Below, one piece after another: positions 139 through 35,300 of a stretch of DNA of 39,639 nucleotides (the first letter of the stretch is position 1; each line of letters opens with the position of its first letter). The stretch lies in NCBI GenBank assembly GCA_003231035.1, contig QIHU01000303.1:1-39639 (forward strand). Reading direction: 5' to 3'. Under the pieces are notes generated by a model that worked only from the letters and a program-made list of their open reading frames with translations, was not told where the DNA came from and searched no databases. Both the position numbers and the translations under genes were made by a program. This stretch comes from Acidobacteriota bacterium. GTDB taxonomy: Bacteria > Acidobacteriota > Thermoanaerobaculia > Multivoradales > SZUA-115.

Positions 139-215
139 AGGCCAGTAGCTCGAACTGGTAGAGCATCGGTCTCCAAAACCGAGGGTTGGGGGTTCGAATC
201 CCTCCTGGCCTGCCA
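139..215 (+). tRNA. tRNA-Trp (anticodon CCA), 3' CCA encoded
   Basis: Hand-folded cloverleaf. Acceptor AGGCCAG/CTGGCCT, D stem GCTC/GAGC, anticodon stem TCGGT/ACCGA with loop CTCCAAA (anticodon CCA). T stem GGGGG/CCCTC with loop TTCGAAT, discriminator G, then CCA. Confidence 0.9.
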
Positions 216-237
216 ACACTTTTAGGGATAATTCATC

Positions 238-441
238 ATGTCGTGGTGGAATCAAATCAAGACCTTCCTTGCGGAGGTTCGCTCGGAAATTCGCAAGGTC
301 ACTTTTCCCGGCCGAGACGAAGTGGTCTCCACGACCATCGTGGTCCTGGTCACCAGTGTGATTTTCGCGGCCTTTCTCTGGCTCGCGGACACCGTGGTTG
401 TGTTTTGCTACCAAGGCGTTCTGCAGGTGTTCAAGTCATGA
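238..441 (+). CDS. secE: Preprotein translocase subunit SecE
   Basis: 67-aa ORF with one C-terminal TM helix (VVSTTIVVLVTSVIFAAFLWL) preceded by an EVRSEIRKVTFP motif. ATGA overlap with nusG. Conserved position between tRNA-Trp and nusG. Confidence 0.85.
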   Translation: MSWWNQIKTFLAEVRSEIRKVTFPGRDEVVSTTIVVLVTSVIFAAFLWLADTVVVFCYQGVLQVFKS

Positions 442-986
442 GCCCAGCCGAGGCCGGCGAGCTTCGCTGGTTTATCGTTCACACCTACTCGGGCTTTGAA
501 GAGCGGGTCAAGGAGACGCTGCTACAGCGCGCGGAAGCGCTGAATATGGCGGACGATTTCGGCGAGGTGCGAATCCCAACCGAGACGGTGGTCGAGTTCA
601 AGGGCGGCAAGAAGCGCGAGATTGAACGCAAGTTCTTTCCGGGTTACATCTTGGTTCAGATGGCGATGTCCGATGCGGCTTGGCACGTGGTCAAGAATAC
701 GCCGAAGGTCACCGGTTTCGTGGGCACGGGTAAGAAGCCGACTCCCCTTACCAAGGCCGAGGTCAGTCAGATTCTCGAGCAGGTTTCCACCGCGAAAGAG
801 AAGCCTAAGCCGAAATACGTCTTCGACAAGAATGAGCCGGTCAAGATTATCGACGGACCGTTCAGCAATTTCACCGGCAAGGTCGAAGAGGTCAACCTGG
901 ATCGCGAGACACTCAAGGTCATGGTGACCATTTTCGGTCGAGCGACGCCGGTGGAGCTGAGTTTCTTGCAGGTGGAGAAGCTCTAG
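438..986 (+). CDS. nusG: Transcription termination/antitermination factor NusG
   Basis: [28 protein letters not shown]... carries the NGN domain (WFIVHTYSG) and a C-terminal KOW motif ([18 protein letters not shown]). Start is taken at ATG 438 rather than ORF-track position 186, which would overlap the tRNA and secE. Confidence 0.95.
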
Positions 987-1033
987 CTCTTTCCGTTCGC
1001 ACGGGTTCGTTTTAGCATCGATACGAGGAAAAG

Positions 1034-1459
1034 ATGGCAAAGAAAGTCACCGGTCTAGTCAAACTACAGATCCCCGCCGGGGGAGCGACTCCGGCACCTC
1101 CCGTGGGCCCAGCCCTCGGTCAGGCGGGGTTGAATATCATGGACTTCTGCAAGGCGTTCAACGCGCGAACGCAAAATGAGCAGGGCCTGATTATTCCTGT
1201 CGTGATCACGGTTTACGCTGACCGCACCTATAGTTTTATTACCAAGACGCCGCCCGCGGCGGTGCTTCTGAAGAAGGCCGCCGGTTTGGCCAAGGGCTCT
1301 GGTGAACCCAATCGAGACAAGGTCGGCACGGTGACCCGGGCGCAACTTGAAGAGATTGCCACTACCAAGATGCCCGATTTGAACGCAGCGGATCTAGACG
1401 CGGCCTGCAAGATTATTGCGGGTACCGCCCGATCCATGGGAATTGAGATTCAAGGCTGA
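1034..1459 (+). CDS. rplK: 50S ribosomal protein L11
   Basis: [43 protein letters not shown] is the canonical L11 N-terminus. A GAGGAAAAG RBS lies upstream. Confidence 0.97.
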
Positions 1460-1502
1460 GCGCCGATGGGCTCAGTGAGAGCGATAGCGCAAGGAGACGA
1501 TC

Positions 1503-2207
1503 GTGTCTAAGCACGGAAAGAGATACCGCAACCTAGCGGCTGAGTTGGACGAGAGCCGGCATACGCTGGATCGCGCCATTGAACTCGCCAAAGGGACGGC
1601 ATCCACCAAGTTCGATGAAACGCTCGAGGTCGCGTTGCGACTAGGGGTGGATCCGCGTCACGCTGACCAGATGGTGCGCGGCACGGTTGTGTTGCCGCAC
1701 GGTACCGGTCGCACGGTGCGGGTGTTGGTATTTGCCGATGGCGAAAAGATCAAAGAGGCCGAGGAGGCTGGAGCCGATCACGTGGGTGGAGCCGAGTTGG
1801 CCAAGAAGATTCAAGAGGGGTGGCTCGACTTCGATGCCGTCGTTTCAACTCCCGACATGATGAAGGTCGCGGGTCGGTTGGGTCGGGTGCTAGGGCCTCG
1901 TGGTCTGATGCCCAACCCGAAGACCGGAACGGTGACGATGGATGTCACCAAGGCGATCACCGATATCAAGGCGGGTAAGGTGGAATTCCGAGTCGAGAAG
2001 GCCGGCATCGTGCAGGCGCCTCTTGGCAAGCTGTCCTTCTCCCAAGAACAGCTGCAGGAAAACGCTCGGGCGCTGATCGGAGCGGTGCTCAAGGCCAAGC
2101 CACCGGCGTCCAAGGGCAAGTACATCAAGAGTGCCTCGCTGTCGGCGACGATGGGGCCCGCTATCAAACTCGATGACGCCGCGCTCAGTGCCGCGGCTGA
2201 GGCCTAG
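1503..2207 (+). CDS. rplA: 50S ribosomal protein L1
   Basis: GTG start with an [25 protein letters not shown]...[16 protein letters not shown] is typical L1. Confidence 0.97.
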
Positions 2208-2218
2208 GAGGGCGTACG

Positions 2219-2743
2219 ATGGCCTTAACTCGTAAAAAGAAAGACTCGCTTCTCGCCGAGTACGAGAGCGGTTTCTCCCAGGTGTCCAATGCCTTCTTGC
2301 TGGGCTTCAAGGGTATCTCCGTCCCTGACGTGACGGAACTGCGCTCGAAGGTCCGCGAGAACGGTGCTGGGTATCTCGTGGTCAAGAATACCATCGCCCT
2401 GCGCGCCACCAACGGTACCGCGCTGGCCGAGTTGCAGGAACATTTCCAAGGTCCGACGGCCGTCGCCTATACCGATGGCGATGTGGTTGCGTTGGCCAAG
2501 GTCTTGACCGATTTTGCCAAGGATGTACCGGCGATCGAATTTAAGGCGGGAATCGTGGATTCCAGTCCGGTCGGCGCGGAAGATATCAAGGAGCTCGCAG
2601 GACTCCCGAGTCGCGAGGCGTTGATCGCCAAGTTGCTCTTCCTGATGCAGTCGCCGGTGACGCGACTGACCCGCGGCCTCAACGCCATCACGCGGGACTT
2701 TGTGGTCGTCGTCGACCAAATCCGGCAACAGAAAGAAGAGTGA
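2219..2743 (+). CDS. rplJ: 50S ribosomal protein L10
   Basis: AGGAGG RBS. A 174-aa L10-like sequence sits between rplA and rplL. Only 11 nt separate it from rplA, so there is no L10 leader here. Confidence 0.93.
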   Translation: MALTRKKKDSLLAEYESGFSQVSNAFLLGFKGISVPDVTELRSKVRENGAGYLVVKNTIALRATNGTALAELQEHFQGPTAVAYTDGDVVALAKVLTDFAKDVPAIEFKAGIVDSSPVGAEDIKELAGLPSREALIAKLLFLMQSPVTRLTRGLNAITRDFVVVVDQIRQQKEE

Positions 2744-2801
2744 GAGAGGTCTCTCGCAGGACTCTGGAAATCCAGTTTCGAAGAACATAAGGAGAGTTTA
2801 G

Positions 2802-3179
2802 ATGGCCATTGCCACAGAAGATTTCATTCAGCAGATTGACGAGATGAGCGTCTTGGACTTGAACAACATCGTCAAGGCGCTCGAGGAGCACTACGGCGTT
2901 TCGGCTGCCGCGGCTGGTGTTCCGATGATGGCCGCCGGTCCTGGCGGCGGCGAGGCGGAGGAGGAGCAGACCGAGTTTGACGTCGTCCTGACCTCCATCG
3001 GTGACAAGAAGATCAACGTCATTAAGACGGTTCGCGAGGTCACCAGCCTGGGACTCAAAGAGGCCAAGGAGTTGGTCGAGTCGGCGCCGGTCAACGTCAA
3101 GGAAGGCTTGTCCAAGGACGAGGCCGAAGAAGTCAAGAAGAAGTTCGAGGACGCTGGCGCTCAGGTCGACCTGAAATAG
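2802..3179 (+). CDS. rplL: 50S ribosomal protein L7/L12
   Basis: N-terminal dimerisation helix, Ala/Gly/Glu hinge ([21 protein letters not shown]), and C-terminal domain [24 protein letters not shown]...[14 protein letters not shown]. Confidence 0.97.
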
Positions 3180-3202
3180 ACCACGTTCCCGCTGTATTTG
3201 CT

Positions 3203-3232
3203 GCTCGCCGCGCATTACGATGCGCGGCGAGC
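3203..3232 (+). terminator. rplL-rpoB intergenic hairpin (attenuator-like, no U tract)
   Basis: Perfect 13-bp stem GCTCGCCGCGCAT / ATGCGCGGCGAGC with loop TACG, 24 nt after the rplL stop. A partial terminator at this position is known in other bacteria. No T-run follows. Confidence 0.5.
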
Positions 3233-3491
3233 ATTGCCGCCCCCGTATCCAATGACCCGCAAGTGCTCTCTTGAGAGTGCGTATTCTTAGCTTGGCGCGA
3301 CACCGCGCAAACATGTGATTCGGCGCTCTTGCTGACCTGCCAAAACCTCACAACCACGCTCCAGCGCCGCCTCGACGCGGTGCCAGGGAAAGACGTGGTC
3401 TACCCCCGTCCGAGTGGCGCCTCACTATCACTCGAGACTACCGCTCAGCGGTGTACTGCAAGCCCTCTTCAGCTACTGCAGGGAGGATTCC

Positions 3492-7745
<4,254 letters not shown>

Positions 7746-7757
7746 GGAGGAAGCCAG

Positions 7758-11939
<4,182 letters not shown>

Positions 11940-17051: not shown

Positions 17052-17197
17052 ATGCGATTGCCGAGGGTGTTGCACCGAGGTTGGCCATGGATGGTCCTGC
17101 AAGTGGTGGTGGTGGTGACGGGCTACCTGTCGCGACCTGGTTTTGAGCTGATCCTGCGCAATGACAGCCATCTCTACGTCAAGTTGGCGCGGCAGGT
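17052..17197 (+). pseudogene. 5' fragment of a membrane GT-C-like (ArnT/PMT_2-like) gene interrupted by the mobile element
   Basis: GGAGAGG RBS and ATG 17052, encoding MRLPRVLHRGWPWMVLQVVVVVTGYLSRPGFELILRNDSHLYVKLARQ. As it stands, the reading frame runs into the left inverted repeat and stops at TAA 17208-17210. It joins in frame to 21596 onward once the element and one TSD copy are removed. The split itself is certain. The GT-C family call is moderate (motif NDS.Y..LA......RT.GYPLFL). Confidence 0.75.
17190..17197. repeat. Target-site duplication, left copy (CGGCAGGT)
   Basis: These 8 nt directly abut the outer end of the left IR and are identical to 21588-21595, which abut the right IR. 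Confidence 0.9.
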
Positions 17198-17223
17198 GGT
17201 GGTGTCCTAAGAGTGTGTGGGCG
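17198..17223 (+). repeat. Left terminal inverted repeat (IRL)
   Basis: GGTGGTGTCCTAAGAGTGTGTGGGCG. The reverse complement of 21562-21587 is GGTGGTGTCCTAACAGTGTGTGGGCG (one mismatch). Confidence 0.92.
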
Positions 17224-17363
17224 CCCGATCTAGCCTGACTCGGCTTGAGCGGGCGGTAGTCTTGCCGGTATCGGGAGGGGCGCGCCTTCCCGGAACCGAT
17301 GAAGCGGCCCGGCGCAGCGGTGAGAACGCGACGCCGAGCCTAGCCACTCAGGAGACAAGCCTC

Positions 17364-17609
17364 ATGAGCGACCGCGATAATTGTACCGCCGACCCGGAGC
17401 GCGAGACCGATTTACAGGAGATACACGCCGGCCTGATGTCGGCGGACGAAGCCGACTGGAACCAAGCATTGCGGGCCGTGCTGCTGCGCCTGCTAGCTCA
17501 CAAGCGGATTTGGTTCGCTACCGCTGCGCAGATCGGAGCTACAGCCGACCGGCAAGGCAAGCGCGCAGCGTTGGTGGAGTTGGTGATGGTTCTAGCTTTC
17601 GAGGGCTAG
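17364..17609 (+). CDS. Hypothetical protein (81 aa), passenger gene
   Basis: AGGAGA RBS lies 8 nt before ATG 17364, encoding MSDRDNCTADPERETDLQEIHAGLMSADEADWNQALRAVLLRLLAHKRIWFATAAQIG... No recognisable motif. A hairpin with a short T-run follows. Confidence 0.45.
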   Translation: MSDRDNCTADPERETDLQEIHAGLMSADEADWNQALRAVLLRLLAHKRIWFATAAQIGATADRQGKRAALVELVMVLAFEG

Positions 17610-17621
17610 GAACTGGAGTTG

Positions 17622-17647
17622 AGGGCGGCGCGGGTCGCCCTTTCCTT
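17622..17647 (+). terminator. Terminator-like hairpin after the 81-aa ORF
   Basis: AGGGCGGC / GTCGCCCT (8 bp, one G:U), GCGG tetraloop, then TTCCTT. Confidence 0.4.
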
Positions 17648-17778
17648 GGCCTAGAGTTGTTACCGATCTACCCGAAGGAGCAGGATTGAAGTAAGATGCT
17701 TGCGTGTGGCGCTTTGATTTAAGCCTCAAGATGGGGCCGGAACGACCACTGGTCGCTCAATGGAAGGAGTCAGAGAGA

Positions 17779-18228
17779 ATGGTTCGCAAGCTAGATGACT
17801 TGATCGATGAGTTCGCATCAGATTTTGACGGCAACATGAAGTCAGATGAAGTTGCGAATGACCGGAGCCGGAAGCGAAGAGACGACTTCTGCGATGCATT
17901 CCTTCAGTGGCATCGATCTACCCTGTTGCCTTTGCTTGAGCGCGCAGGGTCAAGGATCGAGGAAAAGTCAGAGTTCCTACAGACGTCTGTAGGCCCTAAT
18001 CCACTTGGGCTTGATGGCACGACTCTTAGGGTCTTCAGACGAAGCGACACAAGCAATCTTTCCGGTTGGTCCATGACCTTCTTGAAGCACTTCGAGTCAC
18101 TGAAGGTAAAGGTTTTAATTGATATGCCCGGAAAAGACACAGAAGACTTTTCCGTTGATGCTTTGACGGAAGAGCGCCTTGACGAGCTGATTGCTGAGTT
18201 CTTGCGGATGATTTCTATTCGCCGCTAG
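17779..18228 (+). CDS. Hypothetical protein (149 aa), passenger gene
   Basis: AAGGAG RBS lies 9 nt before ATG 17779, encoding MVRKLDDLIDEFASDFDGNMKSDEVANDRSRKRRDDF... The GC content is low. No motif is recognised. Its stop codon overlaps the stop of the convergent transposase gene. The ORF track opens at 17704. Confidence 0.55.
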   Translation: MVRKLDDLIDEFASDFDGNMKSDEVANDRSRKRRDDFCDAFLQWHRSTLLPLLERAGSRIEEKSEFLQTSVGPNPLGLDGTTLRVFRRSDTSNLSGWSMTFLKHFESLKVKVLIDMPGKDTEDFSVDALTEERLDELIAEFLRMISIRR

Positions 18229-19190
18229 ATCGATGCCGCTAGCAGATCGCCCATCGACCACGGCGCCCGTGTGACTCCGGCCTTCATCGCCGGGGTCATG
18301 CGGATCGACCGATGCATCTTGCAGAGGTTGTAGCTCGCGAAGTGCAGGGCGAACGCGGCGCGGAGGTTCTCCCACTTCTTGGAGAATGCACAGGTTAGGC
18401 GGGTCATCCGCTTCATGTGGGTGCGGATGGTGAGGTTCGACCGCTCAACGTGGCTAGTGCAGATCCGCGCTTCGTCAGGCGCGCCGTGGATGGCTCGCTT
18501 CTCAATGGCTATTATCGAGGCGGGAGAATACCGCCGCTGATCTTCCTTCGTGGTGGAGCCGTACTGCTTGATGACCTGGCCGTAGTCCACTCGTGTTCCC
18601 AGGTGGTAGCTGATGGCTTCCGGGTAGGAGTCGAGGCCATCGGTGGAGAGTTGGAAGCGGCCGGCCGTGGCCTTGTCCAGTGCCTCGCAAAAGGCGTCAG
18701 CGTGCATCGCGGTACGGGAGCCGAGCCGGTGGGTGAGAATCATCTTGCTCTCGCGGTCAATGGCTGTCCAACACCAAGCATCACCAAGGTGGTGGCTGTC
18801 GATCTTCCTACCGGTCTTGGTCTTCTGCTTCATCCCGACGAAACCCCAAATCTCATCTGCTTGAACATCGTTGACCTCGACGCCCACCACCAGGCGCTCA
18901 AGGAGTTCGCCGCAGCGGTCGCCGACGGTGCGCAGCAGGCGACACACGGTGTCTCTGTGCGTCCCGGTTACGCGCTCGATAGCGCGGATGCTGGAACCCT
19001 CGACTAGGAGGTTGAGAACCAGGATGGCCCGCTCTAGCGGGATGCGGTGGTTGCCCAGCGGGCGGGCCGGCCGGTTGGCGAAGGTCGAGCCGCAAGCCTT
19101 GCACTTGAACCGCTGGTGGCCGTTGCGATCCGCTCCCCACTTGATGGCGTCGCCGGAGCATTTCGGGCAATTGGTGTGTGTCGTTTCCAT
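18225..19190 (-). CDS. IS1-family transposase, single ORF (zinc finger + HTH + DDE)
   Basis: N-terminal CPKCSG...CKACG zinc finger and HTH SSIRAIERVTGTHRDTVCRLLRTVG. DDE candidates are VQADEIWGFVG, LSTDGLDSYPEA and HVERSNLTIRTHMKRMTRLTCAFSKKWENL. The last closely parallels E. coli IS1 InsB [25 protein letters not shown]. Confidence 0.88.
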   Translation of the reverse strand: METTHTNCPKCSGDAIKWGADRNGHQRFKCKACGSTFANRPARPLGNHRIPLERAILVLNLLVEGSSIRAIERVTGTHRDTVCRLLRTVGDRCGELLERLVVGVEVNDVQADEIWGFVGMKQKTKTGRKIDSHHLGDAWCWTAIDRESKMILTHRLGSRTAMHADAFCEALDKATAGRFQLSTDGLDSYPEAISYHLGTRVDYGQVIKQYGSTTKEDQRRYSPASIIAIEKRAIHGAPDEARICTSHVERSNLTIRTHMKRMTRLTCAFSKKWENLRAAFALHFASYNLCKMHRSIRMTPAMKAGVTRAPWSMGDLLAASI

Positions 19191-19196
19191 GTCCCT

Positions 19197-19225
19197 ACTG
19201 TACTCCCTTTAGGAGTACAAGTCAA
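19197..19225 (-). promoter_or_regulatory. Putative transposase promoter with an embedded 8-5-8 palindrome
   Basis: The minus strand reads TTGACT, a 17-nt spacer, TACAGT, then AGGGAC and ATG. The -10 therefore ends 6 nt before the start codon, giving leaderless geometry. The palindrome TGTACTCC-CTTTA-GGAGTACA (19199-19219) covers the spacer and part of the -10. Confidence 0.5.
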
Positions 19226-19260
19226 GAGATTGAGAAGAGGAATCCTCAGAAATCTTGGTA

Positions 19261-19289
19261 TTGACATGGCGTTACGATGGGAGTACATT
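19261..19289 (+). promoter_or_regulatory. Putative promoter of the RHH gene
   Basis: TTGACA (19261-19266), a 17-nt spacer, TACATT (19284-19289), then GGGAGC and ATG 19296. The geometry matches the divergent transposase promoter. The half-site GGAGTACA recurs at 19280-19287. Confidence 0.5.
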
Positions 19290-19295
19290 GGGAGC

Positions 19296-19460
19296 ATGAA
19301 GGAAGCGCGAATACAGGATGAGAGATTGCAGGTCAGATGCACGGCGGAAGAGAAGGCGACACTGCATGCGGCGGCAAAGCTAGAGAACCGAAACCTCTCG
19401 AACTTTGTTCTAACAGCAGCGCTTGAGCGAGCGCGTACGGAACTCAAGAAGGAGAAGTAG
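19296..19460 (+). CDS. Ribbon-helix-helix protein of the DUF1778/TacA antitoxin type, truncated to the DNA-binding domain (54 aa)
   Basis: MKEARIQDERLQVRCTAEEKATLHAAAKLENRNLSNFVLTAALERARTELKKEK matches the DUF1778 RHH pattern (beta strand R-L-x-V-R, EEK..L..AA...G.S.S.F). It ends where TacA-type antitoxins begin their toxin-binding tail. An alternative ATG at 19266 lacks an RBS. Confidence 0.65.
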   Translation: MKEARIQDERLQVRCTAEEKATLHAAAKLENRNLSNFVLTAALERARTELKKEK

Positions 19461-19660
19461 GGCGGCGCGTAGGGATCGGACCTCGACCGCCCTACGGCTA
19501 GATATCTGCGACCGTGGCAGATACGGCCGATGCCGCTTCCACCCGATCGCTCTTGGAGCCTCTTGGGCCACCTCGCACCGCCTTTCCAGTTGCGGCACAG
19601 CCCTGCGAGCGGATACAATCCACCCGATGAAATCAATGGCAGGGCTGCTGCCTGGTTTCT

Positions 19661-19690
19661 GAAACGCCACCTCGTAACAGGTGGCGTTTC
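19661..19690. terminator. Perfect 12-bp stem hairpin between convergent genes
   Basis: GAAACGCCACCT-CGTAAC-AGGTGGCGTTTC. The U tract is poor on both strands (GCGTT on plus). It may be a bidirectional terminator or a protein-binding/nick-site hairpin. Confidence 0.45.
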
Positions 19691-19784
19691 GCGTTAGCGG
19701 GGTCTACTTCGCCCCGACCTCAGCATCGTAAGTGAGCGATGCCGGCCTGTCAAGCGGGCTAAGTCTATGAAAACAATAGGCTTA

Positions 19785-20630
19785 CTAGCGTCTTGTCCCG
19801 GACGAAAAGGATGACTTATCCCGTTCTTCTTCGATATTTACAGATTTTGTCCCGTCTTTTTTGGAGACTGTCCCGCTGTTTGAGTTACCTTGTCCCGTAA
19901 CCGGGCTCAGCCTGTCCCGAAGTGCGGAAATCGAATCTCTTGCCCAAAAAAAGTCGTATACGGCGACACGGCGCTCTTCAAGGCGGTCCTCCTCGCCATG
20001 CAAGCGTTTCAGCTCCGAGAGAATCTCCTCCTCCTCGAAGAAACCCTTCTCTCGAAGTGAAGGCACGAGCCGGTCAGCGTGACCGGCTAGGAACTCTTGC
20101 ATCTCCTTCAGCTCTGCCTTGATGCTCTCGACAAGTGAGCCCAGCTCAGGGTCTGCCGGGTCGATGCCGAGCCTTCGGAGTTTCTCCGCCGCCGGCTCTA
20201 GGCTTCTCTCTGCCTCCTCCAGAGCCCTTCTCTCGTTGGCAAAGATGTTCTTCACGCCCCGTTCTTGAAATTCAGGAACCGGAGGACCCGTGGGCAAGGT
20301 GCCTTTCTTCTTAGCGCGGCGAAACGCTCTTCGAAGGCGCTCATAGTGGCGCTTTGGTGGATCCAGATTCCGCTTTCGAATGAGCCGCCAGACAGCAGCC
20401 TCCTGTTCGAGGCCATCTACCTCAATCAAGCGCCTTATCTGGTAGAGCTCGGCGTGCTTTTCCGACTTGGAGCTCCGATATCTCTCATCGGATGGCAAGG
20501 GGTTGCACCTCCACCTGGTGCCCACAAAGAAAAGCGGCGCGGCATTCCGGGCTGTGGGAGCCCAGCGTTCGGGGATCAACCTAGCCGCGCCGAAGATTGA
20601 GGCGATTCTACAGGAGGGGGCGGCGGTCAA
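19785..20630 (-). CDS. Hypothetical charged, helix-rich protein (up to 281 aa; start uncertain), passenger gene
   Basis: A long ORF lies 45 nt downstream of the DUF3800-like gene on the same strand. The basic patch RRAFRRAKKKG is followed by acidic helical segments (ERRALEEAERSLEPAAEKLRRLG, EEEILSELKRLHGEEDRLEERR). The last ~45 codons are encoded by the repeat array and read as low-complexity SGT/DGT/RDK. No internal ATG occurs before residue 176, so an alternative start codon is likely. Confidence 0.5.
   Translation of the reverse strand: MTAAPSCRIASIFGAARLIPERWAPTARNAAPLFFVGTRWRCNPLPSDERYRSSKSEKHAELYQIRRLIEVDGLEQEAAVWRLIRKRNLDPPKRHYERLRRAFRRAKKKGTLPTGPPVPEFQERGVKNIFANERRALEEAERSLEPAAEKLRRLGIDPADPELGSLVESIKAELKEMQEFLAGHADRLVPSLREKGFFEEEEILSELKRLHGEEDRLEERRVAVYDFFWARDSISALRDRLSPVTGQGNSNSGTVSKKDGTKSVNIEEERDKSSFSSGTRR
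19793..19919 (+). repeat. Array of six phased direct repeats, consensus (T/C)TGTCCCG
   Basis: Copies start at 19793 TTGTCCCG, 19816 TTATCCCG, 19847 TTGTCCCG, 19868 CTGTCCCG, 19890 TTGTCCCG and 19912 CTGTCCCG. All share one orientation. Spacings are 23, 31, 21, 22 and 22 bp, with AT-rich spacers. Confidence 0.85.
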
Positions 20631-20675
20631 CGCGGCGGGAGGGCTACTCGGAAGCCGTGGACGGTGGCGGATCTG

Positions 20676-21545
20676 CTAACTGATTTCTGAGTCGAGGTCC
20701 GAATTGATTTTCTCGCCGTACGCTTGAATCTGCGCGAAGTACTCACGAAGAATCCGACTTCTTGGTGTTAGGTGCTGCGCCTTGAACTTGATGCGCTTGC
20801 CCATGATCAGATTGCGAAATTCAGGCCGCGAAGGCTCCTTGCCACTGTCAAGGTGTTCACCCTTGAATCGTCCGTATTCCCACGCGAGTAGATCGGCTGC
20901 CTGAAGGACTGTTGAGTCCTGCTTTCCGACGAATGCGTGGGAGTGGTAGTGATATGCACGGCGCAATGTAGCGTCTCGCCTCACGAGGTGCATCAAAGCG
21001 TCGGCGTCGCCTTGCGGACCTTCGTTTCCCTGCTCAAAGAGATAGGAAACGACATCTGTCCTCTTATCCTTGTCCAGGTGCGCACCGACCGCAGCGAGAC
21101 AGAAGTGGGCACAAAGTGGGTACGCGCGGTTGAATCCGCGCACCTTAGGAAGGTATGGTTCGATCTCGGTGAGGTTGCAGGCGACTGCTACCCCGAACTG
21201 AGCGTACTTTGCAATAATTTCGACAGCTTGATCCTGAAGCCGTTGCGACGCTTCGCGCCCTCTCAGGTGCTTAAACTGTCGATTTCTGTGTACAACCTCC
21301 ACCATGTGGAAGATCCGGCCACAAGTAAGCATCTCTTTCCACTCAGACTGAAAACGCGCAGCCTGACCCTTGGTGAATACGAAGCCAGCCACGCAGAAAG
21401 TGCCGTCTGGCCTCTGCGATTCGTCGAAGTAGGCTTTCAGCATGCAGGCTAGGCCGCCGTCCCTTGGGAGAAGGTCGTTAAGGTCGAAACCCAAGAAGTC
21501 TAGCGCATCGCTCGTGGCTACACTGGCCCCCCGCCCGCTACTCAT
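20676..21545 (-). CDS. DUF3800-like protein, passenger gene
   Basis: MLKAYFDESQRPDGTFCVAGFVF and LQAADLLAWEY match the two hallmark DUF3800 motifs as I remember them (N-terminal DES, C-terminal Q.aDl.a). Start is taken at ATG 21545 (GGGGGAAGG RBS), 17 nt inside the right IR. ATG 21443 would start directly at the conserved core and is an alternative. Confidence 0.6.
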   Translation of the reverse strand: MSSGRGASVATSDALDFLGFDLNDLLPRDGGLACMLKAYFDESQRPDGTFCVAGFVFTKGQAARFQSEWKEMLTCGRIFHMVEVVHRNRQFKHLRGREASQRLQDQAVEIIAKYAQFGVAVACNLTEIEPYLPKVRGFNRAYPLCAHFCLAAVGAHLDKDKRTDVVSYLFEQGNEGPQGDADALMHLVRRDATLRRAYHYHSHAFVGKQDSTVLQAADLLAWEYGRFKGEHLDSGKEPSRPEFRNLIMGKRIKFKAQHLTPRSRILREYFAQIQAYGEKINSDLDSEIS

Positions 21546-21561
21546 CCCCGCCGCCTTCCCC

Positions 21562-21587
21562 CGCCCACACACTGTTAGGACACCACC
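21562..21587 (-). repeat. Right terminal inverted repeat (IRR)
   Basis: CGCCCACACACTGTTAGGACACCACC is the reverse complement of IRL with one mismatch. Confidence 0.92.
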
Positions 21588-21595
21588 CGGCAGGT
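21588..21595. repeat. Target-site duplication, right copy (CGGCAGGT)
   Basis: Identical to 17190-17197 and directly abuts the IRR. Confidence 0.9.
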
Positions 21596-32366: not shown

Positions 32367-35300
32367 CTAGTCGGTAGAGCCTTCTCCGGGCGCCGCCGCG
32401 AACTCTCGAGCCCGGTTCGGCCGTCCCAGAGCGGTGTATAGCTCGCGCAGGTAGCGGCGGTTGCGTTCGATCTTGGCCGATTGTTCGGCGCAACAGGTGA
32501 GGAGCCTGTCGAGGCCCTGGAGCAGCTTCGCTTCGGCCTCGCGGTAGCGGTGTTGGCGCAGGAGGACTAGCCCCAGGGCGCGCTCCTGGTCGGCGATGAC
32601 TTGGGGATTGGCCGGTGTCTGGCTAGCGGCGAGCAGGGAGCGGCGGGCAACGCTTTCGGCTTCGTCGAACTCGCCAAGGCGCAGCAACACGGAAACCAGA
32701 GGGCCGGAGAAGGTGAGAGTGTTGCCGTGTTGCTCGCCGAGCTTTTCCTTGGCGAGCTGGTAAGCCCTGTGGAACGACTGGCGGGCGTCAAAGAGATTCT
32801 TTCGCTTTAGCTGGATGACGCCCAGGTTGTGGTACAGCGTGGCGATGGTCGGGTGGCTGGGGCCGAGGATCTTGAGGAAGACCTCCAGCGACTGGCGGTA
32901 CATGGCCTCCGCTCTATCGAATTGACCAAGGCTGCTATAGACCCGGCTCAGATTGTTGGCCACGGTGGCGACTTCGGTGTGGGTGTCGCCATATTCAGCT
33001 CGGTAGATCTCCAGCGCTTCGCGGTAGAGTCGCTGCGCTTCCTCGAAGTCTTCTTGGCGGTAGCGCAAGCCAGCCAGCCGACTCAGGGATTCGGCGACCT
33101 CGATATGGCCGGCCCCGAACCTCTCTCGACGGATCTTCAAGGAACGGGTGAAGTGCTCTTCCGCTTCGTCGAACCTCCCTTGGGCGATGCGCAGCTCACC
33201 TAGCTGGTCGAGGCTATAAGCGATCGCTGGATGACCCTCGCTGTAGAGCTGGCGGCGAAGCTCCAGGGCTTCCTGGAATAGGCTCTCCGCCTCTGCAAAG
33301 CGGTGAAGCTGGCGCAGCATGGTGGCCAAGTTGGTGAGCGTGGTGGCGAGCAGGGGATGGCCCTCGGGGTAGAGGTGGCGCTGTCGGTCAATCGCATCGC
33401 GAAAAACCTCCTCCGCTTCCTCATAACGGCCCTGACGCTGTAGAGCGGTGGCCAAATTTCCGGTGGCGCCGGCCAGTAGGGGGTGGCGATCGGTGATCTG
33501 TCCCATCAGTTTGATCGTCCGCCGATGGAGTTCCTCGGCGGCCTCGAACTGGGCCAGTTGGCGCTTGAGCGAACCGAGAGCGTCGAGGCCGGTCCCCAGC
33601 AGCTTGATGCGCTCTTGAGTTGTGGGTTCGATCAGCTCGATCGACTCCTGAAACGCCTTTTCCGCCTCCTCGAAACGGCCCACCTCTTGGTAGAGGCTGG
33701 CCAGCTTGTGAAGGCATGAGACCACTCCTTGTGGACTCTTCCCTAGTCTCCTTCGGCGGATCGCCAGCGCTTCCTGGAGGTGCTCTTCGGCTTTTCCATG
33801 GTTCGCCTGCAGCGTTTCGATCCGACCCAGCTCTTCGAGCGTGTCGGCCAGCCTGGGGTCGATTTTCGAATGCAGTTCGCGGCGGTTGGCCAACGCCGAG
33901 AACAACAGCTCCCGGGCTGGCTCGTAGAGGCCCAACCCGAGATAGGTCTTGGCCAGAGTCTCCATCAAGCTGGCCTGGATCTCCGGCTGTCCCGAGAGTT
34001 GCTGGAGTTCACCGGCGCTGTTGTCGAGGACTTCGCGAGCGGTGATGCTCTCACCCTTCGATTGGGTAGGATCGGCGATCTCATAGAGATCGATCATGAA
34101 CTGGGAGACCACCCCGGCTCGGTCGCGTTGTTGCAGGGTCTTTTGACGCTGTAGGAGCAGGCTGGTGAGGAGGACGAGTAGGAGCGTTAAGGCTGCCGCG
34201 GCGGCGGTCGTTGCAAGGCGATGACGATTGAAGAATTTGCTGGTTCGGTAGACCAGGGTGTCCTTGCGGGCGCCAACTGGCAGGCCGGCCAGGTGGCGTT
34301 GGACATCTCCCGCCAGGGCCTCCACTGAGGGGTAGCGACGGCTGGGTTCCTTGCGCAGCGCCATCAAAACGATGGTGTCGAGATCCCCGGCGAGTCGCCG
34401 CTCCAGCTTGGATGCCCGTTCGGCGATTCCGGCCTCCGCAACGCTTTTAGCATCGCTGACCGACGCGGAGGGGCGACGCGGCTCCTGCTCGCAGACCGCG
34501 CGGGTGAGCTCGTGGGCGGCCGCCGAATCCAACCGGTAGGGAAGCTGGCCGGTCAGCAGGACGTTGAGCAGCACCGCCAGCGAGTAGACATCGGTCGCGG
34601 TGGTGATGGCCTCGCCCAAGATCTGCTCAGGACTGGCGTAGCTCGGGGTCATCAGCTGCACCCCGGACTGCGTTTGGACTAGGGTTTGCGGGAAGTCATC
34701 TTGGCGCAGTAGTTTGGCGATGCCAAAGTCGAGCAGTTTCGGCTCGCCGTCGGGCGCGACCAGGATGTTGCCTGGCTTGATGTCGCGATGGACCACCAGA
34801 TTGCGGTGTGAGAAGGCGACCGCCGCGCAGACTTTGACGAAGAGGCGAAGGCGTTCTTCGACATTGAGCTGGTTGTGGCGACAGAACTGGGTGATGGGAA
34901 GACCATCGACGAAGTCCATCACCAGATAGGGCGCACCTTCCTGGGTAGCGCCGCCGTCGAGCAGCTTGGCGATCCCCGGATGGTCGAGGTTGGCCAAGAT
35001 CTGCCGTTCGCTCAGGAAGCGACGCTCGAGGTCGAGGTGTACCAGATTGCGCTCGAGGAGTTTGATCGCCACCTGTTTGCGGTAGGTGTCGTCGGCCCGG
35101 AAGGCGAGAAAGACCGCGCCCATTCCACCACGACCCAGCAGGCGAACCAGTTCGTAGGGGCCAATCTTGCGCCCCGCGATCGCCGGTTCGTCGGCCTCCC
35201 CGCTGGCGGCAAGAGCTAGCGGATCGACGGCCGGCCGGTCGATGAAGGCGGTGGCTTCGTGGTGACTAGCGAGGAGAGAGTCAACCTCTTGGCGCAGCTC

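Follow-up and report, generated by a model that had tools for sequence, protein, structure and literature searches.

A helically phased repeat array coupled to an uncharacterised protein family in IS1-type transposons

The repeat array and its host gene

The window analysed in this study, a stretch of 39.6 kb (39,639 nucleotides) of contig QIHU01000303.1 from an Acidobacteriota bacterium, is chromosomal, with nusG, rplA, rplJ, rpoB and rpoC at 186–11939 and ordinary metabolic genes elsewhere, and contains a 4,390-bp transposon of the IS1 family (17198–21587). Within this element, six short direct repeats (19793–19919) overlap the 3' end of ORF237 (P0001; database gene call at 19785–20498, minus strand), a passenger gene for an uncharacterised all-helical protein. 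Read in the sense of the transposase, the element comprises a DUF3800 gene, a structured leader, ORF237, the array, a promoter-like sequence, a strongly structured stretch, a gene for a ribbon-helix-helix (RHH) protein on the opposite strand, the transposase gene and two open reading frames (ORFs) without family match. Judged by sequence comparison, the repeats are real and functional-looking: a phased, element-specific array of DNA sites coupled to a new protein family. The kind of array, i.e., operator- or iteron-like, is already known.

On the plus strand, the motif YTGTCCCG occurs exactly at 19793, 19847, 19868, 19890 and 19912, while the copy at 19816 reads TTATCCCG and deviates at one position. 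The sequence-only reading had reported six same-orientation copies of (T/C)TGTCCCG; orientation and steps (23/31/21/22/22 bp, start to start) hold, but only five copies are exact. On the transposase-sense strand, the six repeats read CGGGACA(A/G)(G/A/T) and start at 19919, 19897, 19875, 19854, 19823 (CGGGATAAG) and 19800, with steps of 22/22/21/31/23 bp. A single further exact YTGTCCCG lies in the window, at 33987, and shuffling predicts 4.2 copies for the entire window on both strands; from this rate, the chance of five copies on one strand within 127 bp is about 4 × 10^–10. Seven-letter words with one mismatch to the motif are found 106 times in the window vs. 163 expected. One of them, the minus-strand AGGGACA at 19190–19196, overlaps the transposase start codon, probably by chance. 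The spacers are AT-rich as claimed (40.5% GC, compared with 61.7% for the window and 57% for the body of the ORF), and Tandem Repeats Finder reported no tandem duplication at the array, because the spacers are unrelated to each other. The copies occupy all three reading frames (offsets 2, 0, 2, 2, 1, 0). The array does occupy the final ~45 codons of the ORF, whose end is at 19785, and the perfect 12-bp hairpin close by (19661–19690; GAAACGCCACCT-N6-AGGTGGCGTTTC) was likewise described correctly.

The host gene itself had been read as an ORF of 281 aa reaching to 20630, which is probably incorrect: the 44 extra upstream codons coincide with a conserved, non-coding structured leader. ORF237 most likely begins at the TTG codon at 20498, which is preceded by the Shine-Dalgarno sequence GGAGGTG and yields 237 aa, and the longer version is probably not translated. 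When 1.84 billion representative proteins were searched exhaustively with HMMER, 20 homologs of 148–257 aa with 25–37% identity were obtained. HMMER was needed to find them, as a word-indexed protein search gave the query itself only; an exact-sequence context look-up of P0001 had no match. AlphaFold, run on the family alignment, predicts an all-helical protein (pLDDT 89) with an N-terminal three-helix unit (residues 11–28, 32–43 and 48–65, modelled with high confidence and without significant fold match) and long helices up to residue 197. Residues 1–197 are conserved and confidently modelled, and residues 198–237 form a disordered tail encoded by the array. The family has no match in Pfam, PHROG or NCBIfam and none among PDB sequences, and Foldseek against PDB and BFVD gave nothing significant, either for the full model or for a low-confidence model of the N-terminal part (pLDDT 65).

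All homolog alignments end by residue 209 of 237, and each of the 20 homologs lacks the 45-aa tail, which is thus peculiar to the window protein. The observation that this tail reads as low-complexity SGT/DGT/TGQ/RDK was accurate, and the tail is best described as a by-product of read-through into the array: the motif CGGGACAAG contains no stop codon, so that all six sites are translated. ORF237 is the founding member of a predicted helical family whose occurrence, in the present material, is confined to IS1-type transposons. The readable neighbourhoods of family members all belong to this transposon type (11/11), and every contig of sufficient length also shows a NikA-like RHH gene and an IS1 transposase; 72,556 plasmids contained no member.

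Related transposons and their arrays

The carrier element is bounded by 26-nt terminal inverted repeats matching at 25 of 26 positions (GGTGGTGTCCTAAGAGTGTGTGGGCG at 17198–17223, plus strand, beginning GGTGGTG, and its partner at 21562–21587, minus strand), and flanked by an 8-bp target duplication in direct orientation (CGGCAGGT, 17190–17197 and 21588–21595). IS1 ends, as collected in ISfinder, begin GGnnnTG, and target duplications of 8–9 bp are typical of the family. The 321-aa transposase (18225–19190, minus strand) matches DDE_Tnp_IS1 with 36.3 bits (cut-off 24.1) and Zn_ribbon_InsA with 24.1 bits, just under the cut-off of 26.1, and its plasmid homologs are annotated as "IS1 family transposase". 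The designation as an IS1-type element is therefore sound with respect to transposase and ends, but with 4,390 bp and several passengers the element is far larger than a plain IS1. It is inserted in frame and splits a membrane-protein gene. In-silico excision of the element together with one CGGCAGGT restores an uninterrupted ORF of 446 aa (17052... joined to ...22790), and the insertion consequently looks recent.

Transposases related to that of the window (38–82% identity) were found at 23 genome loci and 48 metagenome loci, mostly in metagenome-assembled genomes of Acidobacteriota, Planctomycetota and Verrucomicrobiota and on contigs of up to 5.8 Mb. The transposase-based scan of the 48 metagenome loci revealed no new member of the ORF237 family and no close copy of the window element. 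In 10 relatives, like terminal repeats bound elements of 2.6–6.5 kb, which therefore represent an IS1 subgroup with passenger genes. The leader and the stretch from the RHH gene to the array are conserved at the DNA level between the window and the elements with the closest transposases (L121–L125 and L133; 55–81% identity). Between these conserved blocks lies a variable gene, which is an ORF237 relative in L121, L123, L124 and L125, an unrelated ORF in L122 and a transcription factor with Trans_reg_dom and RovC_DNA-bd domains in L133.

In 12 of the 13 ORF237-family loci with readable downstream sequence, three to six direct repeats of constant orientation start at the 3' end of the gene or just past it. 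The motifs are variants of (C/T)(G/T)GG..., and each element has its own version of this YGGG type. Next to the six copies of CGGGACAag in the window, five copies each are present in L201 (TGGaGACAAaTtc, also written TGGAGACAAATTC), L125 (TGGGtAgAAA), L202 (TGGGCanATCTC) and L124 (gGGGTTCTGTCgta), four in L199 (tGGGGAACAATTC), L150 (TGGGtAAGAACC), L146 (TGGGTAGAGTTTC), L147 (TGGGTAGgGTTTC) and L123 (CTGGAAAAGaT), and three in L200 (TGGGGAAgAAT) and L148 (CTGGTAA). Pooled over all arrays, the 40 spacings comprise 20 bp (3), 21 bp (20), 22 bp (8), 23 bp (1), 30 bp (1), 31 bp (5), 34 bp (1) and 37 bp (1); hence, 32 of them measure 20–23 bp and seven 30–34 bp, corresponding to two or three turns of B-DNA, and the seemingly odd 31-bp step of the window is a regular feature. 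Moreover, five arrays are flanked by inverted copies of their motif, as expected for recognition of duplex DNA rather than RNA.

The position of the stop codon relative to the repeats varies. It precedes the array in five loci (L124, L199, L200, L201 and L202), lies inside a repeat (GGGTAG, GGGTAA or TGGTAA) in L146, L147, L148, L150 and L125, and follows copy two in L123 and copy six in the window, which argues that the repeats act as DNA and not as codons. In the five relatives with an internal stop, the repeat motif itself supplies the stop codon of the putative regulator, so that evolution of the motif also sets the number of translated sites.

A blind k-mer scan of 472 kb around related transposases located multi-k-mer arrays 675–730 bp upstream of the transposase start, with L170 (+1605) as sole exception. 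Where a different passenger gene fills the slot, repeated sequences are present as well: in L122 (5381–5448) and L151 (2310–2374) we found TCAGnCCCnCCTGTGAAT-like units with 25-bp phasing, and in L133 (5374–5440) palindromic TTCCCnGGGAA sites are repeated after the gene for the RovC-type regulator.

Taken together, the array is conserved as an architecture rather than as a sequence, as far as comparison of the loci can tell. Place, orientation and phasing are kept among relatives and the encoded residues are not, which is the pattern proposed earlier for an array that matters as DNA; the view of a phased, multi-site array for a (predicted) binding protein, and not of a protein feature, is likewise borne out, since the relatives keep the array and not the tail. 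That such an array would not be expected inside an IS1-type element proved wrong, as arrays of this kind belong to the regular equipment of the present IS1 subgroup.

Candidate binder and proposed role of the array

Which protein recognises the sites can be approached by asking what varies along with them. The transposases of the window and of L121–L124 share 69–81% mutual identity and a common terminal-repeat sequence, and the RHH proteins of L121–L124 are nearly identical, whereas these elements have wholly different arrays, and L121 has none; neither protein is therefore a likely binder. The conserved terminal repeats (GGTsGTGTCCTAA) are, moreover, unlike the array motifs, which makes binding of the transposase to the array unlikely. 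As modest support for ORF237 itself, the similarity of the motifs follows N-terminal identity within the ORF237 family (Mantel r = 0.42, permutation p = 0.008) and shows no correlation with C-terminal identity (r = 0.17, p = 0.13). Because arrays differ while RHH protein and transposase stay constant, because of this N-terminal covariation, and because a known type of regulator occupies the same slot in L133, we infer that ORF237 binds its own downstream array.

A sigma-70-like promoter matching the consensus (TTGACA-17-TACGAT, 19725–19753, minus strand) faces the transposase gene 47 bp past the start of the last repeat. Matches of at least 10/12 positions at 37–47 bp past the last repeat start occur in the window, L124, L201 and L202, i.e., in four of 11 loci vs. 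0.39 expected, and weaker ones in L121, L199, L125 and L148. Downstream of the promoter follows a strongly structured region (19600–19722, minus strand) with a 5-bp hairpin, the 12-bp hairpin mentioned above and a terminator-like hairpin (19638–19652) followed by a T-rich run; the hairpins between array and RHH gene are stable with z = –4.5.

We give about an even chance to the reading that the array is a set of helically phased double-stranded DNA sites for ORF237 that control the outward promoter, i.e., an operator or upstream-activator array. Several ORF237 units, joined via their long C-terminal helices, would line up cooperatively along a single face of the double helix, spaced every two or three helical turns, and would thereby control a sigma-70-type promoter 36–47 bp past the last site. 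This promoter could fire through a structured leader towards a small ORF, the antisense strand of the RHH gene and then the transposase gene, and its activity might set the balance between RHH repressor and transposase. The output, again inferred, would be transcriptional control of the transposition module, and ORF237 and its array would act as an element-specific "specificity cassette" between an int-alpA-like leader and the RHH-transposase module.

Several points weigh against this proposal. Just four of the 11 loci have a strong promoter match, at a variable distance from the last repeat. The GC-rich hairpins after the promoter could instead serve ORF237 and the convergent RHH gene as a terminator. 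The covariation between motif and protein was computed for 12 pairs, with shared descent as a confounding factor, and Pfam, PHROG, NCBIfam, PDB and Foldseek revealed no DNA-binding domain in ORF237. Furthermore, L121 (same as L144 and L145), with 34% identity the closest homolog with genomic context, has no clear array. The corresponding region of L121 (5313–5440) contains possible degenerate copies (GGATACAA at 5331, GGACACAA at 5364 and GGTTACAG at 5389) and keeps a promoter-like TTGACA-17-TAGAAA and a hairpin.

Among the other functions to be considered, an accessory site of transposition (an internal enhancer, an immunity site or a copy-pairing site for transpososome assembly, bound by ORF237 or the transposase) would suit an array that occurs solely within IS1-type transposons and keeps a fixed distance to the transposase gene, with element-specific motifs preventing cross-talk between related elements. 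As the array lies 1.7–2.6 kb from either end, and its dissimilarity to the terminal repeats speaks against binding of the transposase, we regard this option as unlikely. Quite unlikely is also a centromere-like or handcuffing site, at which ORF237 would tether or position its carrier DNA: a gene followed by phased direct repeats and a long helical protein would fit, yet neither the element nor 11 related loci encode ParA, ParM or TubZ, all well-assembled copies are chromosomal, and the family is absent from the plasmids searched. ORF237 bears no ParB, ParR, RHH or StbA signature. The neighbouring RHH protein (19296–19460, plus strand, divergent from the transposase gene) matches TacA1 and NikA-like models, and proteins of this class typically bind arrays of short repeats; with its gene 330 bp away, the array could be an extended operator or an oriT-like region of NikA type. 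This is very improbable in view of the unrelated or missing arrays beside nearly identical RHH proteins in L121–L124, of separate palindromes flanking the RHH and transposase promoters, and of the lack of a relaxase. Alternatively, the repeats might work at the RNA level, as a motif at the 3' end of the mRNA of ORF237, or be a functionless product of slippage or low-complexity coding sequence; either would agree with an array that is probably transcribed together with ORF237 and translated in the window. This explanation is left only a slim chance by the phasing at two and three turns of the DNA helix, the inverted copies found in five relatives, the occupation of all three frames, the variable stop position, the disordered and non-conserved tail and the unrelated spacers without tandem duplication.

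The sequence-only reading had listed iteron-type origins among the candidate architectures, and an origin located within the 3' part of its initiator gene would account for the ~22-bp phasing, the lower-GC spacers and the nearby hairpin. Identical heptamer arrays do occur in phage initiator genes. Searching IMG/VR with TGTCCCG-N13-17-YTGTCCCG-N13-17-YTGTCCCG, we obtained more than 120 matching contigs, many of them with perfect coding tandem repeats, and 45 loci (within L004–L119) in which TGTCCCG arrays with variable spacers lie beside AT-rich DNA and inside a gene on the opposite strand, i.e., in the same orientation relative to the gene as in the window. A DnaB-like helicase gene follows the array-bearing gene in 27 of these 45 loci, and all 30 sampled array-gene proteins match PHROG replication-initiation families (O-like and DnaD-like; four match Pfam Phage_rep_O). 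These arrays are candidate lambda-type origins, apparently with one heptamer used across two very different initiator subfamilies. They are phased at 11/12 bp and 21–24 bp, e.g., in L010 (1041–1190), L021 (5831–6000) and L116 (2081–3022). Against an origin in the window stands that the shared heptamer reflects how the phage loci were selected, that ORF237 is unrelated to any Rep family or to O-like initiators, and that the element lacks genes for Rep, helicase, primase or loader. The candidate of a degraded or divergent O-like initiator was rejected by tblastn and hhalign (probabilities of 0.5% and 0.1%). Reading through 19600–19980, without a dedicated scan, we saw neither a long AT-rich stretch nor a box of the type TTATCCACA or TTGTCCACA, and the element is an integrated transposon with target duplication on a chromosomal contig carrying rpoBC. 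An origin is thus very improbable, and neither the origin nor the centromere suggested earlier finds support in an element that has no initiator, no ParA and no plasmid context. The decision not to call the repeats DnaA boxes was justified, with six of nine positions matching and motifs of relatives (e.g., TGGGTAGAGTTTC) being wholly unlike. The analogy to lambda ori, drawn in the same reading, is apt as architecture, given the 45 viral arrays in initiator genes, but does not extend to the protein, as ORF237 is unrelated to initiators.

Comparison with known systems and further features of the element

Like the window, the lambda-type origins of the 45 viral loci consist of one-strand direct repeats inside a gene, with changing frames and a low-complexity linker, and share the heptamer (coding strand CGGGACA). 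They differ in having a recognised initiator and in placing the repeats in an inter-domain linker, whereas the window array sits at the extreme 3' end of its gene in a chromosomal transposon. Plasmid iterons such as those of RK2, P1, F and R6K show ~22-bp phasing, and incC/incA arrays lie downstream of rep genes. The window resembles them by same-orientation, two-turn phasing beside the gene of the presumed binder and by a specificity that differs between relatives, but lacks a Rep_3-type or other initiator, origin hallmarks and a plasmid context. Centromere arrays may also follow the gene of their binding protein, as for sopB-sopC of F and StbA-stbDR of R388. The order of gene and repeat array and a protein predicted to oligomerise are shared with these systems; a partition NTPase is missing here and the family is absent from plasmids.

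Operator or activator arrays of transcription factors, including RovC/FseA-type regulators of mobile elements, likewise have phased sites upstream of a promoter, and the L133 slot holds a regulator with Trans_reg_dom and RovC_DNA-bd domains and its own repeated sites. ORF237 differs by having no recognisable DNA-binding domain, and an array lying partly in the coding end of its own gene is unusual. In phage Mu, the internal activation sequence overlaps the Mu operators. The likeness to Mu would consist in an internal multi-site region, an element-encoded regulator and an influence on transposition, but the transposase family is unrelated and nothing here shows the transposase touching the array.

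Insertion sequences are usually viewed as minimal, i.e., as two ends and a transposase. The IS1 family described here appears to carry a conserved, multi-part control region, the central pair of protein and site array differing from element to element. It is possible, though still rather doubtful, that the members of this subgroup in uncultured Acidobacteriota, Planctomycetota and related groups have a specificity cassette that can be exchanged. It would work as a transposition switch or immunity region specific to each element, much like the repressor-operator regions by which lambdoid phages are heteroimmune. Such a cassette would comprise the int-alpA-like leader, a DNA-binding regulator that evolves fast or can be swapped (from the ORF237 family, of RovC type or another), its phased sites and an outward promoter feeding the structured leader, the small ORF and the transposase gene. 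If regulator and operator array are indeed cognate, an unannotated protein family would gain a function, the elements would offer a natural set of orthogonal protein/DNA-site pairs, and related transposons might insulate their regulation from each other like heteroimmune phages. The locus also calls for caution, as an iteron-like array inside a gene is insufficient to call an origin: arrays of this very heptamer belong to origins in phages but not here. As far as our searches went, a control architecture of this kind around an array is undescribed for insertion sequences, and the literature on ISMhu11, IS1 passenger genes and int-alpA gave nothing relevant.

The conserved structured leader upstream of ORF237 (20521–20591, minus strand) resembles the Rfam int-alpA RNA (RF02996). 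With 26.4 bits, the window leader stays under the gathering threshold of 35.8 bits, which is exceeded by the leaders of L123 (4633–4705; 42.7 bits), L124 (234–306; 39.3 bits) and L125 (4660–4729; 38.1 bits). A –10-like box (TAGAAT, 20609–20604) lies by the leader, and the inner hairpin of the leader shows compensatory changes (CCGGG/CCCGG, CTGGG/CCCAG, CCAGG/CCTGG). The occurrence of int-alpA-like RNAs before regulators inside IS1 elements seems to be unreported.

Past the hairpins downstream of the array, a small ORF with a strong GGAGG site is found in the window (region 19460–19722, minus strand) and at equivalent places in L121–L125, L146, L147 and L199. Its peptide is conserved in several relatives (M..FYRGPvPLHRF..GLLWQSRPR), the window version being divergent. 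Hairpins and small ORF may belong to the transposition module, in which the region would act as small RNA, attenuator or micro-protein. Between the RHH and transposase genes, divergent sigma-70-like promoters (RHH, 19261–19289, plus strand; transposase, 19225–19197, minus strand) are flanked by the palindrome GTACTCC-N4-GGAGTAC and a 20-nt inverted repeat (19188–19207 / 19279–19298), and relatives carry GTAGTCCCA...TGGGACTAC at the equivalent spot. These palindromes around 19188–19298 are probably the operator of the RHH protein, which would then act there and not on the array.

The remaining cargo of the transposon consists of the DUF3800 protein gene (20676–21572, minus strand; family match) and two ORFs without family match on the plus strand (17217–18228), coding for 130 aa (17217–17609) and 174 aa (17704–18228). 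A weaker 33-nt inverted repeat (79%; 18240–18272 / 20646–20678) encloses the transposase-RHH-ORF237 core and excludes this cargo. The pair is only marginally above chance expectation, and may be either a relic of a smaller, older element or a chance match.

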